Below are positions 27,322 through 46,371 of a stretch of DNA of 64,000 nt, piece after piece. The notes beneath the pieces were generated by a model. It saw only the letters and a program-made list of their open reading frames with translations, did no database searches and was not told the origin of the DNA. Source of the stretch: Candidatus Omnitrophota bacterium (GTDB taxonomy: Bacteria > Omnitrophota > Gorgyraeia > 2-01-FULL-45-10). The stretch lies in assembly GCA_041650935.1 (NCBI GenBank), contig JBAZKH010000001.1, positions 576,911-640,910 on the forward strand, in the 5' to 3' direction. Position 1 is the stretch's first letter, and each line of letters starts with the position of its first letter. The translations under genes and the position numbers were made by a program.

Positions 27322-27591
27322 CTAGGCAGGTAATTCGAGCGAATCGACGAGCAGGGTGGCCCTGTTATCGGAAAACTCAAGAAGCCCGTTGCCGGTCAGG
27401 ATAAAATCTACCATAGCATCTTCGTCGGAGCGCAATGTGATCTTGCCCGGGACGAGCCGCGCGATAATGGGCGCATGATGCGCCAATACGCCGAGATATC
27501 CGAGCTCCGCGGGAACGACCAGCGACAAAATCTTTTTATCATAAACGATCCTGCCGGGCAGGATCATATTCAGGTGAAATGAGCAGGTCAC
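27322..27591 (-). CDS. atpC: F-type ATP synthase epsilon subunit, short form with the beta-sandwich domain only
   Basis: 89 aa, in last position of the atp operon. LSLVVPAELGYLGVLAHHAPIIARLVPG matches the epsilon N-terminal domain. No C-terminal helical hairpin is encoded. Confidence 0.75.
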   Translation of the reverse strand: MTCSFHLNMILPGRIVYDKKILSLVVPAELGYLGVLAHHAPIIARLVPGKITLRSDEDAMVDFILTGNGLLEFSDNRATLLVDSLELPA

Positions 27592-29004
27592 TTATTTCAG
27601 GTCTCCCTTCAGGAGCCTTTCGGCTTTTTCTATGGCTTCGTCGATACCGCCGACCATAAAGAACGCCTGCTCAGGCAGGTGGTCGAGCTTTCCTTCAAGG
27701 ATCATCTTAAAGCCTTTTATCGTATCCGCCAGCTTAACGTACTTGCCTTTTATCCCGGTAAACTGCTCGGCCACAAAAAACGGCTGTGAAAGATACCTCT
27801 GTATCCTGCGCGCGCGGGCGACGATAAGTTTGTCTTCGTCCGAAAGCTCATCTATCCCGAGGATGGCGATAATATCGCGTAAGTCTTTATATCGCTGCAG
27901 GACCTTTTGAACGCTGATGGCCGTATTATAGTGATCTTCTCCCAGTATTTTTGGATCCATTATGCGTGAAGTCGAATCGAGCGGATCGACGGCGGGATAG
28001 ATACCGAGTTCGGCTATCTGCCGGGAGAGGACCATCTTCGCGTCGAGATGCTGGAAAGTTGTAGCCGGGGCCGGATCGGTAATGTCGTCGGCAGGGACAT
28101 ATATAGCCTGTACGCTCGTTATGGAGCCGCGCTTTGTGGAGACTATCCGTTCCTGCAATTGCGCCATCTCTGTGCCCAGAGACGGCTGGTAACCGACGGC
28201 CGACGGCATCCGCCCGAGCAGTGTCGATACTTCCGAACCTGCCTGGACGAACCTGAAGATATTGTCTATAAAAAGAAGAACATCCATCCCCCGGTCGTCC
28301 CTGAAGTATTCGGCCATTGTCAACGCCGAAAGCCCGACGCGGAATCTTGCCCCCGGAGATTCGTTCATCTCTCCGAATACGAGGGCCGTCTTCTTTATTA
28401 CGCCTGATTCTATCAGGTCCAGGTAGAGCTCATTGCCTTCCCTGGTCCGCTCGCCGACCCCTCCGAAGACCGATACCCCGCCGTGCTGGGTCGCGATCGT
28501 GCGGATAAGCTCCATTACTATGACGGTCTTACCGACCCCCGCTCCGCCGAACAGGCCTATCTTGCCGCCCTTCGGGTACGGGGCCAGCAGGTCGATAACC
28601 TTCAGTCCTGTCTCGAGCATGGCCTGGACGGGAACCTGCTCTTCGAACGAAGGCGGGTTCTTATGTATCGAGGAACGCTTTCGCGCGTCAGGCACAGGCC
28701 CCTTTTCGTCGATGGGCTCGCCGAGCAGATTGAATATGCGGCCGAGGGTCTGGTCCCCGACCGGAACGCTTATAGGGGTGCCGAGATCCACGGCTTTCAT
28801 GCCGCGCACCAGGCCGTCCGTAACACCCAGCGCCATGCACCGGGCGGTATTATTGCCTATCAATTGCTCGACTTCAAGGGTCAGGTCGATATTCCTGGAG
28901 GGTTCCGTGATCTTTATCGCATTCAGTATCTCCGGAACTTCTCCCTCGGGGAAACGTATGTCGACCACCGGGCCGATAACCTGTAATATTTCGCCGTCTG
29001 CCAT
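27592..29004 (-). CDS. atpD: F-type ATP synthase beta subunit
   Basis: 470 aa. Walker [16 protein letters not shown]-like region ELSDEDKL. Confidence 0.95.
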
Positions 29005-29007
29005 GAT

Positions 29008-44036: not shown

Positions 44037-44046
44037 GGCCTAAATA

Positions 44047-46371
44047 TTATTTTGAAACGGCCAAATCAGGCGCCGTTCTTTTACTCTTCATCACCGCCCA
44101 GACCAGGGATGCGCATAAAAGCGACACTATTACCCACCCGCCAATCCCAAGTTTATTATACTGGACAACTATCGGCGCAATGATGACAGAGACAAGGTTT
44201 ACTACTTTTATCATAGGGTTGAGCGCCGGACCTGCGGTGTCTTTTAGCGGATCACCTACGGTATCGCCGACGACCGCTGCTTTGTGCCGCTCAGAACCTT
44301 TGCCGGTATTTTCGGCAACGCTGCGCACTTCATCTTCGATAGTCTTCTTCGCGTTATCCCATGCCCCGCCCGAATTTGACATGAATACTGCGAGCAGTTG
44401 TCCTGATAAAATTATACCGGCCAGGAATCCGCCGAGCGCCTCGACCTGAAGCACGAGCCCCACAACTATGGGCGATACTATGCATATGATCGCAAGGCTT
44501 ACGAGTTCTTTCTGGGCCGCTGTTGTGGAGATGGCAACGGCCTGCTTGTAGTCGGGCTTCACCTTGCCTTCTAACACGCCCAGCTTGAATTGACGCCTGA
44601 CCTCATGCACTATAAGAGAAGCGGCCCTTGCCACGGCCTGGATGCTGAATGCCGAGAATAACCACGGTATGGCGCCGCCTATAAGCATACCTACGAAAAC
44701 CTGCGGCACCGAAACGCGTATTCCCAGCGAACTTAGCTGATCGGCTAACGGTACACCTAACGCGGCCTGTACCTTGCTTACGTCGACCATATATGAACCA
44801 AAGAGCGCTACAGCCGCTATTACAGCGGATCCTATGGCTACTCCTTTGGTGATAGCCTTTGTCGTATTTCCAACTCCGTCGAGGTCGGCCATAATCTGGC
44901 GGGCCTCTTTCGTTTCCTTATCTTCTTTGCCGTGCCAGGCCATCTCCGCTATGCCGTTCGCGTTATCCGCGATCGGTCCGAAAGAGTCCATGGCTACGTT
45001 GTTGCCTGTAAGGGTCAGCATGCCTATGCCTGTCATGGCAACGCCGTACAATATATAGGCAACCTTGGTGGCGCCCGCGATCCCGGGAATCGTTCCGAAT
45101 ATAACGATCGATGAGAATATCGTAGTAGCTATGACAAGTATCGACCATACCGCAGATTCATATCCGACCGCGATGCCGGACAATATAGTAGTAGCCGAGC
45201 CCGTTGCGGTGGACTTCCTGATCTCGCGAACCGGCTTACCTTCTGTTCCTGTAAAGTATTCTGTAAGACGGTCGATAGCGATCGCCAATCCTACGCCAAC
45301 CGCCGTTGCGAGGAACGGTCTCCACCATCCGCCCGGAAGCTTGTTCATGTAAACGAACGCTAGCACGCCGAACAGGGTAACAGATATCGCGGCCGATGTT
45401 AAGAAGCCGCGGAATATCGCCTTCATAGCATTACCGCTCTTGGAAGGCCCTTCTTTTACAGCGTAAGTACCTATAATAGAACATAAGACGCCTATGCCGC
45501 GCACGAGGAGCGGATAGACTATCCATTCAAGCCTGTGCGTTATGTGATATAGCGCAAGACCGAGTATCAATCCTGCCACTATAGTTACTTCGTATGATTC
45601 GAATATATCAGCCGCCATACCGGCACAATCGCCGACGTTGTCTCCTACCAGGTCCGCGACTACTGCAGGATTGCGCGGGTCATCCTCGGGGATGCCTGCC
45701 TCGACTTTTCCGACAAGGTCGGCGCCGACATCGGCTGCCTTCGTATATATCCCGCCGCCCACCCTCATGAATAATGCGAGCAGCGTGCCGCCGAAGCCAA
45801 AACCCAATAATGCGTCGGGCGCGGCAACGCCGAATATGATGAATATTATCGTTCCGCCGAATAGTCCCAGGCCGTCTGTCAGCATGCCGGTGATGGTACC
45901 CGAACGGTAAGCTATCCTTAGCGCGTCGCCAAACGACCTCTTTGCTGCCTGAGCTACTCTTACATTACCCTGGACTGCCATACGCATACCGAGCTGACCG
46001 ACAAGAAGTGAAAATACCGCGCCCATGATGAACGCGAGCGCCCTGCCTATGCCTATGATGAGCCTGACCGCATTTTCCGGCTGTCCGGCAAAGCGCTGCA
46101 TCGCTTCTTCGGAAGGAGGCACTATATATACGGAAAAGAACAACGCGAATGTAAGTATGCCGATCAAAGGCAATATACTGAAGAGCTGTTTGCGAAGATA
46201 TGCGTTTGCGCCTTCCCTGATAGCGTTCCAGACCTCTATCATTTTGGCATCGCCTTTATCTTCCCGCAGTATCTGCTTGCGAAGGAAGAGAGCGTAAAGC
46301 AGTCCGAGTATAGATATGCCTAAAACACCCCAAATCGCGACCTGTTCAAAAAATGTAAGCCCATATACCAT
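44047..46371 (-). CDS. hppA: Membrane-bound proton/sodium-translocating pyrophosphatase
   Basis: 774 aa. GGGIYTKAADVGADLVGKVE, DNVGDCAGMAADIFESY and the C-terminal DTVGDPLKDTAGPALN motif. Confidence 0.95.
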   Translation of the reverse strand: MVYGLTFFEQVAIWGVLGISILGLLYALFLRKQILREDKGDAKMIEVWNAIREGANAYLRKQLFSILPLIGILTFALFFSVYIVPPSEEAMQRFAGQPENAVRLIIGIGRALAFIMGAVFSLLVGQLGMRMAVQGNVRVAQAAKRSFGDALRIAYRSGTITGMLTDGLGLFGGTIIFIIFGVAAPDALLGFGFGGTLLALFMRVGGGIYTKAADVGADLVGKVEAGIPEDDPRNPAVVADLVGDNVGDCAGMAADIFESYEVTIVAGLILGLALYHITHRLEWIVYPLLVRGIGVLCSIIGTYAVKEGPSKSGNAMKAIFRGFLTSAAISVTLFGVLAFVYMNKLPGGWWRPFLATAVGVGLAIAIDRLTEYFTGTEGKPVREIRKSTATGSATTILSGIAVGYESAVWSILVIATTIFSSIVIFGTIPGIAGATKVAYILYGVAMTGIGMLTLTGNNVAMDSFGPIADNANGIAEMAWHGKEDKETKEARQIMADLDGVGNTTKAITKGVAIGSAVIAAVALFGSYMVDVSKVQAALGVPLADQLSSLGIRVSVPQVFVGMLIGGAIPWLFSAFSIQAVARAASLIVHEVRRQFKLGVLEGKVKPDYKQAVAISTTAAQKELVSLAIICIVSPIVVGLVLQVEALGGFLAGIILSGQLLAVFMSNSGGAWDNAKKTIEDEVRSVAENTGKGSERHKAAVVGDTVGDPLKDTAGPALNPMIKVVNLVSVIIAPIVVQYNKLGIGGWVIVSLLCASLVWAVMKSKRTAPDLAVSK

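Follow-up and report, generated by a model that had tools for sequence, protein, structure and literature searches.

In a 64,000-nt window of a contig from a Candidatus Omnitrophota bacterium (GCA_041650935.1, JBAZKH010000001.1, positions 576,911-640,910 of the forward strand; all coordinates below are positions in this window), three machines of energy metabolism are encoded one after the other on the minus strand: hppA, for a membrane pyrophosphatase (46371-44047), is followed by a 12-gene cassette for a group-4 [NiFe] hydrogenase (44036-34074), and this in turn by atpZ-atpI-atpBEFHAGDC, for an F1Fo ATP synthase (34077-27322). We consider it moderately probable that this block is a modular chemiosmotic locus made up of an H+-pyrophosphatase, a ferredoxin-linked hydrogenase and an H+-coupled F1Fo, whose genes would be co-expressed, largely from the promoter ahead of hppA. 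The block has true gene ends at both limits, 46371 and 27322, every real gene between them lies on the minus strand, and Pfam and NCBIfam matches across hppA, the cassette and the atp genes bear out the gene identities given in the initial annotation of this DNA.

The three machines and their predicted coupling ions

The cassette begins with three antiporter-like genes and continues with NuoJ/MbhD-, NuoK-, possibly NuoA-, NuoB-, NuoC-, NuoD/large subunit-, NuoH- and NuoI-like genes, hycI being the last (Table 1). The large subunit aligns with MbhL (6CFW_L, E 1.6e-101) and with HycE (7Z0S_E), both CxxC ligand pairs being matched, and its Ni-Fe motifs ERICGICSHSH and DPCFSCTDR correspond to the group-4 ligand motifs RxCGxCxxxH and DPCxxCxxR. 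As in other group-4 enzymes, a NuoB-like small subunit with a [4Fe-4S] motif and NuoC-, NuoH- and NuoI-like proteins are encoded in the same cluster, and judged from its sequence the enzyme is a complex-I-like, 11-subunit group-4 [NiFe] hydrogenase accompanied by its own HycI protease. The second antiporter-like subunit matches 8E9G_L over residues 58-607, and also MbhH (6CFW_H). In E. coli, HycI cleaves off the C-terminal tail of HycE; the large subunit of the window carries a 47-aa C-terminal extension that aligns with this tail, and its presence fits, because a hycI gene closes the cassette. The layout is not that of the Mbh type (group 4d), since 12 contiguous genes with three PF00361 subunits stand against the 14 genes of MbhA-N with a single MbhH. 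MrpE/F/G-like genes were not found in the cassette, which has no additional open reading frames (ORFs), no room for them and no MrpEFG-type match. None of the electron-input modules NuoEFG, formate dehydrogenase or CO dehydrogenase is encoded in it either, and ferredoxin is therefore the likely electron partner.

The ion-specificity residues of the pyrophosphatase and of the c subunit, whose inspection the initial annotation had proposed, bear an H+ signature in both proteins. In the alignment to 4A01, the hppA product reads GNTTKAITKG where the K+-dependent H+-pyrophosphatase of Vigna reads GNTTAAIGKG, and the motif is kept in hppA orthologues. According to the signature of Belogurov and Lahti, Lys instead of Ala together with Thr instead of Gly in GNTT[A/K]A[I]x[G/T]KG reportedly marks the K+-independent subfamily, and all the members of this subfamily known to us pump H+. 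The protein also matches the K+-insensitive proton pump of Pyrobaculum aerophilum (8B37, E 1e-127), and has in common with the K+-independent H+-pyrophosphatases both the full-length PF03030 domain and the Lys/Thr signature, while differing from them in that its gene heads a hydrogenase/ATP-synthase string. It is predicted to be a K+-independent H+-pyrophosphatase. The best NCBIfam models for hppA are all named "sodium-translocating pyrophosphatase", and the top one scores above its cutoff; we did not accept this name as proof of the ion, since every PRK00733 model bears the label and the residue signature conflicts with it. Automatic annotation would thus be likely to mislabel the coupling ion of hppA. 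With regard to pyrophosphate (PPi) economy, a phosphofructokinase encoded downstream (19856-20947, minus strand) was examined for PPi dependence and has a mixed signature, with GGDGT (Gly, as in the ATP type) and PKTIDND (Lys, as in the PPi type).

All eight F1Fo subunits were recognized by Pfam, in the order atpBEFHAGDC. The arrangement of the N-ATPases (atpDCQRBEFAG) is not present, as the gene order is canonical, a delta subunit is encoded and the c subunit has no Na+ ligands; the only feature in common with that family is the small AtpZ/AtpR-type protein (PF09527). The ligands of Na+ c-rings are Gln32, Glu65 and Ser66 (and Thr67) in Ilyobacter tartaricus numbering. At the position of the Gln the c subunit of the window has Leu, and it has E-A-L in place of E-S-T; it aligns best with the H+ rings of chloroplasts and Spirulina (2W5J, 2WIE), with which it has the site AF(I/M)EALTIY in common. 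The ion-site motif is the same in the orthologues, and the c-ring is predicted to be H+-coupled. The 91-aa ORF in the AtpI position returned no Pfam or NCBIfam match.

As the hydrogenase has no Na+/H+ exchange module and the other two machines are predicted to use H+, we infer that it contributes to their proton circuit. Ferredoxin reduced in fermentation or acetogenesis would be oxidised at the NuoI/NuoB-like Fe-S chain, protons would be reduced to H2 at the Ni-Fe site, and the complex-I-like membrane arm would export H+. The pyrophosphatase would add to the same gradient through the hydrolysis of biosynthetic PPi, and F1Fo would turn the gradient into ATP, or run in reverse.

Conservation and modular variation of the locus

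One genome per GTDB species was scanned with a profile of the large subunit, and the best 80 of at least 598 matches were kept; L-numbers denote related loci from our scans, L083 coming from a source other than the 80-genome set. Among these best 80 matches the order of the 12 cassette genes is constant across phyla at 64-90% large-subunit identity, the cassette being found in Omnitrophota, Planctomycetota, Verrucomicrobiota, Spirochaetota, Elusimicrobiota, Bacillota, Myxococcota and others. The full order of hppA, cassette and atp occurs in L003 and L011 among the 80, and in L083, all of them Omnitrophota at 77-90% identity. The cassette is followed by atp also in L067 and L006, where the upstream sequence is cut, and in two more distant Omnitrophota, L036 (with an insert of ~1.6 kb, upstream cut) and L048 (upstream cut, truncated within the cassette). 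In L007, a Phycisphaerales metagenome-assembled genome (MAG), the triad is permuted, atpG-D-C preceding the cassette and hppA following it, all on one strand. The initial annotation had called the triad unusual, and unusual it is, with two of the 80 cassette genomes (three with L083) and the single permuted case.

When the ORFs flanking the cassette were clustered all against all, membrane pyrophosphatase turned out to be its commonest neighbour (13 of the 80 loci, or 14 with a truncated match in L070), followed by ATP-synthase alpha/beta (8 loci). The pyrophosphatase stands in at least five arrangements relative to the cassette, among them upstream on its strand, immediately downstream in either the same or the convergent orientation, and at a distance of a few genes. 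Three lineages of pyrophosphatase are represented among these neighbours (66-93%, 45% and ~30% identity), and the last of them has GNTFKATAK in place of GNTTKAITKG. The flank examined in this census amounted to ~603 kb in total; given one copy of the gene per genome of a few Mb, a rough estimate that ignores shared ancestry puts the number of such loci expected by chance well below one. The ~30% lineage flanks the cassette in Phycisphaerae and Endomicrobia (L007:13153-15573, L019, L035, L037 and L073).

Other loci hold only part of the block. In L004, L005, L084 and L085, at 79-81% identity, the cassette is followed without atp by a HAD hydrolase gene and two radical-SAM genes, and in the three of them with upstream sequence (L085, L004 and L005) no hppA precedes it. 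From the side of the pyrophosphatase, a profile scan of metagenome contigs with hppA returned L088, with hppA followed by the cassette; L089, in which NadE, hppA, atpZ to atpC and a radical-SAM gene follow each other without a hydrogenase, and which has four upstream genes in common with the window; and L087 and L090, with hppA, a permease gene and atp. Most hppA homologues at 70-78% identity have none of these neighbours, while the closest ones (84-87%) have them. As hppA and atp are linked with nothing, a permease gene or the 12-gene cassette between them, and the cassette also occurs without either, the locus is modular.

The trio of HAD hydrolase and two radical-SAM genes that follows atpC in the window stands directly after hycI in L004, L005, L084 (3051-6722) and L085 (13034-16739). 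Its position is always immediate, after atpC where atp is present and after hycI where it is absent, and the helicase gene further downstream in the window is also found in L005 and L084. L085 (cassette and trio) and L087 (hppA, permease gene and atp) are different contigs of the same JGI metagenome, Ga0265297, with a similar divergence from the window, and they may represent one organism with the two blocks apart. A neighbour-joining tree of the large subunit, NuoH and NuoB interleaves genomes with and without hppA or atp; as it carries no support values, it was not used to tell gain from loss. Two cassettes depart from the common form: L031, from a MAG labelled Actinomycetota, has a second NuoB-C-D-H-I set (9941-14000) ~3.4 kb downstream of a first, complete cassette, and the long-read MAG L007 has its NuoH-like gene broken into two ORFs that overlap (11217-12159), probably by a frameshift error.

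Table 1. Genes and signals of the block and its immediate flanks, in the order of transcription (window positions).
Feature	Position	Strand	Evidence and remarks
Sigma-70-type promoter, TTGACA-16-TATAAT, 12/12	46475..46502	-	104 nt upstream of hppA; hexamers kept in L003, L083
Terminator-like hairpin (GGCCUCC...GGGGGCU, about 46441-46403) and U-run in the hppA leader, possible attenuator	46395..46441	-	fold
hppA, membrane pyrophosphatase, 774 aa	44047..46371	-	PF03030 end to end, E 1e-238; signature GNTTKAITKG
Antiporter-like subunit 1, 479 aa, MrpA-N/NuoL-like	42597..44036	-	PF00361 and PF00662; best solved matches MrpA 7QRU_A, NdhF, Nqo12
Antiporter-like subunit 2, 611 aa, NuoL/MbsH'-like C-terminal extension	40761..42596	-	PF00361; full-length alignment to NuoL models
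Perfect 26-nt palindrome GCAGCCGGCATTTAAATGCCGGCTGC in the 51-nt gap between antiporter-like genes	40729..40754	.	lineage-specific
Antiporter-like subunit 3, 479 aa, MrpD/MbhH/NuoN-like	39270..40709	-	PF00361; 6CFW_H E 1.7e-58
NuoJ/MbhD-like membrane subunit	38764..39267	-	PF00499 and PF13244, both below curated cutoff; position kept in 70+ loci
NuoK/MrpC-like subunit, 106 aa per ENA call	38457..38777	-	PF00420 E 2e-16
Membrane protein, 112 aa, probably NuoA-like	38113..38451	-	sub-threshold PF00507 E 0.0046; kept in every cassette
Hydrogenase small subunit, NuoB-like, four-Cys [4Fe-4S] motif (CxxC...C...C)	37657..38106	-	PF01058 E 2.5e-31
NuoC-like subunit, 158 aa per ENA call	37184..37660	-	PF00329
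[NiFe] hydrogenase large subunit, 407 aa, both CxxC motifs	35968..37191	-	PF00374 and PF00346
NuoH-like membrane anchor	35030..35968	-	PF00146 E 2.5e-74
NuoI-like 2x[4Fe-4S] ferredoxin subunit	34668..35033	-	Fer4 family matches; two CxxCxxCxxxCP-type motifs
HycI-type maturation endopeptidase	34074..34610	-	PF01750; TIGR00142 hycI E 6e-29, below equivalog cutoff; TIGR00072 above its cutoff
Promoter-like TTGACA-17-TAAAAT, 11/12, beginning at the atpZ TTG start	34049..34077	-	kept in L003, L067, L083; absent from L011, L006
atpZ, 77 aa, TTG start	33844..34077	-	PF09527; no Shine-Dalgarno
AtpI-like small membrane ORF, 91 aa, assigned by position only	33569..33844	-	kept in L003, L067, L011, L006
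atpB (a subunit)	32799..33587	-	PF00119 E 2e-44
127-nt AT-rich spacer, folding together with the atpB 3' end into a hairpin of ~115 nt	32672..32798 (fold region 32672-32830)	-	dG -40.4, z -3.85
atpE (c subunit)	32441..32671	-	PF00137; H+-type site AFIEALTIY
atpF (b subunit)	31923..32417	-	PF00430
atpH (delta/OSCP)	31369..31923	-	PF00213
atpA (alpha)	29859..31379	-	PF02874, PF00006, PF00306 on identical ENA gene
atpG (gamma)	29008..29862	-	PF00231
atpD (beta)	27592..29004	-	PF02874, PF00006
atpC (epsilon), 89 aa, beta-sandwich only	27322..27591	-	PF02823 covers residues 5-84
HAD hydrolase, YgiQ-like radical SAM (PF08497 and DUF3362), second radical SAM	23605..27321	-	gaps 0, -4, -11

Expression of the string and competing explanations

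The promoter ahead of hppA has identical -35 and -10 hexamers in the window, L003 and L083, with a diverged spacer between them, which is the pattern expected from selection on a real promoter. The initial annotation had placed a promoter only here; the match is indeed perfect, but the restriction falls, given an 11/12 match at the hycI/atpZ junction and several 10/12 matches. Between the promoter and hppA, the leader hairpin with its T-run recurs in L003 (~800-850), L083 (~735-790), L011 (~765-810), L086 and L088, and was recognized by eye in L087, with compensatory changes at two stem pairs. From its fold, this element may be an attenuator controlling entry to the whole string. Searched with the hppA leader at E up to 10, Rfam gave only spurious microRNA-type matches, and with the whole window at gathering thresholds it gave none. 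The stretch of 417 nt that separates hppA from the permease gene contains four inverted repeats within 46526-46736, one of them with 28-nt arms (46526-46553/46572-46599), to which the spurious Rfam matches are due, and another with perfect 12-nt arms (46707-46718/46725-46736).

As to the junctions, the gaps are short, as had been observed at the outset, none exceeding 57 nt apart from the spacer between atpB and atpE (127 nt, 73% AT), and start/stop overlaps are frequent, at 11 junctions of the block. The overlap of hycI and atpZ had been reported as ATGA; positions 34077-34074 in fact read TTGA, with a TTG start and a TGA stop. The TTG start of atpZ is kept in four species (window, L003, L067 and L083), no Shine-Dalgarno sequence precedes it, and in the window it overlaps hycI by 4 nt; these features fit translational coupling and hence a transcript that crosses the hycI/atpZ junction. 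The terminator-like matches listed by a scan of the sense strand are all weak, and none of those listed falls in an intergenic gap. The count of more than 25 genes has to be corrected, as 23 genes run from hppA to atpC and 26 are reached only with the HAD and radical-SAM trio; since the string continues just as tightly through this trio to 23605, where it meets the convergent helicase gene, the lower boundary of the block is arbitrary. In the reading we favour, expression would start probably largely from the hppA promoter, the leader hairpin may gate the whole string, and translational coupling would be likely at many junctions, that of hycI and atpZ included, with additional internal promoters possible.

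A serious competing explanation, although on balance an unlikely one, is that at least three separate transcription units, with a promoter each for hppA, the cassette and atp, happen to lie side by side because the genome is small, dense in genes and strongly strand-biased, their adjacency having little regulatory meaning. Several observations weigh in its favour and against expression as a unit. About 59 of the 69 ORFs picked greedily in the window lie on the minus strand, and outside the block, too, 84% of the gaps between neighbours on one strand do not exceed 60 nt; co-directionality and short gaps are the norm throughout the window and are therefore weak as evidence of an operon. Internal signals would find room in the gaps of 57 and 51 nt and in the structured 127-nt spacer. 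The leader hairpin with its U-run would by default end transcripts before hppA, and with 4-6 sequences its compensatory changes fall short of significance. The overlap of hycI and atpZ is lost in L003 (gap of +3 nt) and in L083 (gap of +53 nt). The 11/12 promoter match lies at the very start of atpZ, and L089, which has no hydrogenase, has a comparable 11/12 element directly upstream of atpZ, so that atp may own a promoter. Finally, hppA, the cassette and atp occur apart at closely related loci.

On the other side, pyrophosphatase and ATP synthase adjoin the cassette in different phyla and orders, and the adjacency of hppA and atp is kept with nothing, a permease gene or the cassette between them, which speaks against independent units. 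The atpZ start, with its TTG codon, missing Shine-Dalgarno sequence and overlap, argues in the same direction. The promoter match at the junction lies inside protein-conserved sequence and is kept only where the N-terminus of AtpZ is conserved as protein, and its use would cut this N-terminus off; that it serves as an internal atp promoter is possible. A functional link between the modules is thus supported by synteny, while the gap lengths on which the initial annotation relied carry little weight; the single transcription unit under one promoter that it proposed is a candidate reading.

Two conspicuous structures within the block were considered as signals and rejected. The atpB-atpE spacer is present in a single copy and is absent from the corresponding junctions of L003, L011 and L006, so that it is lineage-specific and was taken neither for a conserved regulatory element nor for a member of a repeat family; it appears to have replaced the last codons of atpB. 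The palindrome at 40729-40754 was discarded as an internal terminator or conserved processing site, as a T-run follows it on the antisense strand only, with no U-run behind it in the sense direction, and as none of the relatives examined, L003 and L011 among them, has it in the corresponding gap; it has no second copy in the window.

The direction of flux could also be the opposite of the one we favour, PPi and ATP hydrolysis building the proton gradient and the hydrogenase using it, with H2 reducing ferredoxin, e.g., for the Wood-Ljungdahl pathway. Ech/Eha-type group-4 enzymes are known to work in this ferredoxin-reducing direction. The epsilon subunit is missing its helical C-terminal domain, which in other bacteria acts as an inhibitor of ATP hydrolysis, and the short form, cut down to the beta-sandwich, is kept in L083 (89 aa, 19544-19813) and L089 (87 aa, 16398-16661). 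Moreover, hppA and atp come and go together around the cassette, and for related Gorgyraia families an acetogenic life has been predicted, with 4g hydrogenases and part of the Wood-Ljungdahl pathway (PMC10066038). No Wood-Ljungdahl genes were found in the window, nor were uptake-specific features identified, and Mbh, the closest characterised relative, and formate hydrogenlyase (FHL) both evolve H2, so that we regard the reversal as rather improbable. We are equally doubtful of a more ambitious version of the whole, in which, in one Omnitrophota lineage, ~23 kb would form a single regulon whose attenuator lies in the leader of hppA, the place between hppA and atpZ would be a conserved site for the insertion of alternative proton-motive-force modules (nothing, permease or 12-gene hydrogenase), and the hydrogenase form may run in reverse, PPi and ATP driving H2-dependent ferredoxin reduction. 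That the block is a chimera of assembly or binning, conceivable for a window from a metagenome contig, can be practically dismissed. The block recurs identically in a Logan assembly made independently and on an ENA contig 131.8 kb long, and an NCBI MAG labelled "Candidatus Omnitrophota" has a 100% identical large subunit on a contig of 710 kb, which excludes an artefact of assembly; in addition the same order exists in three other species and the base composition is even along the block.

Relation to known systems and significance

Mbh of Pyrococcus furiosus (6CFW) has the closest solved large subunit and has NuoB/C/D/H/I-like modules and MbhH/MbhD-like membrane subunits in common with the window enzyme, to which a ferredoxin donor and ion translocation are carried over by analogy. 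The two differ in that the deposited MbhL chain ends at DPCxxCxxR, while the large subunit of the window has its C-terminal extension and a dedicated HycI, and MbhA-C/MrpEFG-like genes are not part of the cassette. Antiporter-like subunits number one in Mbh, two in Mbs and three in complex I (PMC8165549), and three in the cassette; the complexes of P. furiosus are moreover described as Na+-dependent (PMC8165549), while the partner ATP synthase in the window is predicted to be H+-coupled. Compared with the core of complex I, the cassette encodes the same subunits minus NuoEFG, three of them antiporter-like and one with an extension of NuoL length at its C-terminus, but the antiporter-like genes come first and the NuoA assignment is sub-threshold. 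Unlike in complex I, the NuoD homologue keeps the Ni-Fe ligands, which points to protons rather than quinone as acceptor. The E. coli FHL/hydrogenase-4 enzymes (Hyc/Hyf, 7Z0S) resemble the window enzyme in the C-terminal extension of HycE and the HycI protease, and Hyf also has three antiporter-like subunits. The cassette differs from them in having no formate dehydrogenase or HycB/F-type input, in keeping NuoC and NuoD separate, and in the presence of NuoJ/K/A-like genes. Group-4 hydrogenases are likewise strung together with functional partners in the fdh2-mfh2-mnh2 and codh-mch-mnh3 clusters of Thermococcus onnurineus, where these partners are electron-input enzymes and a full Mrp antiporter, as against a pyrophosphatase and an F1Fo here.

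Enzymes of Omnitrophota have been called "group 4g, Mrp-linked" (PMC8542988, PMC10066038), a label that comes from related genomes. In MAGs of Omnitrophota, Cloacimonadota and Auribacterota such enzymes are described as membrane-bound NiFe hydrogenases with antiporter-like genes, and hppA, Mrp and ATP synthase are listed separately, Na+ coupling being assumed (PMC8542988, PMC10066038, PMC9324843). In the searchable literature we found no description of an hppA-hydrogenase-atp string, of a linkage of hppA with atp, or of a recurrent neighbourhood of pyrophosphatase and cassette. All components come from known families and the hydrogenase type is already reported in the phylum; what appears to be new is the arrangement. 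Its value lies in physiology, in the bioenergetics of anaerobes and in operon evolution rather than in a new mechanism, as no part is a new type of machine.

The predicted H+ coupling differs from the published schemes for related MAGs, which rely on Na+, and the short conserved region of promoter and leader is the obvious place to seek regulation. Omnitrophota are widespread, uncultivated and energetically enigmatic, and a string that joins the three machines provides a testable model of their energy conservation, while the pyrophosphatase, as the commonest partner of this complex-I-like "group 4g" hydrogenase in several phyla, gives a lead on the function of the enzyme class.

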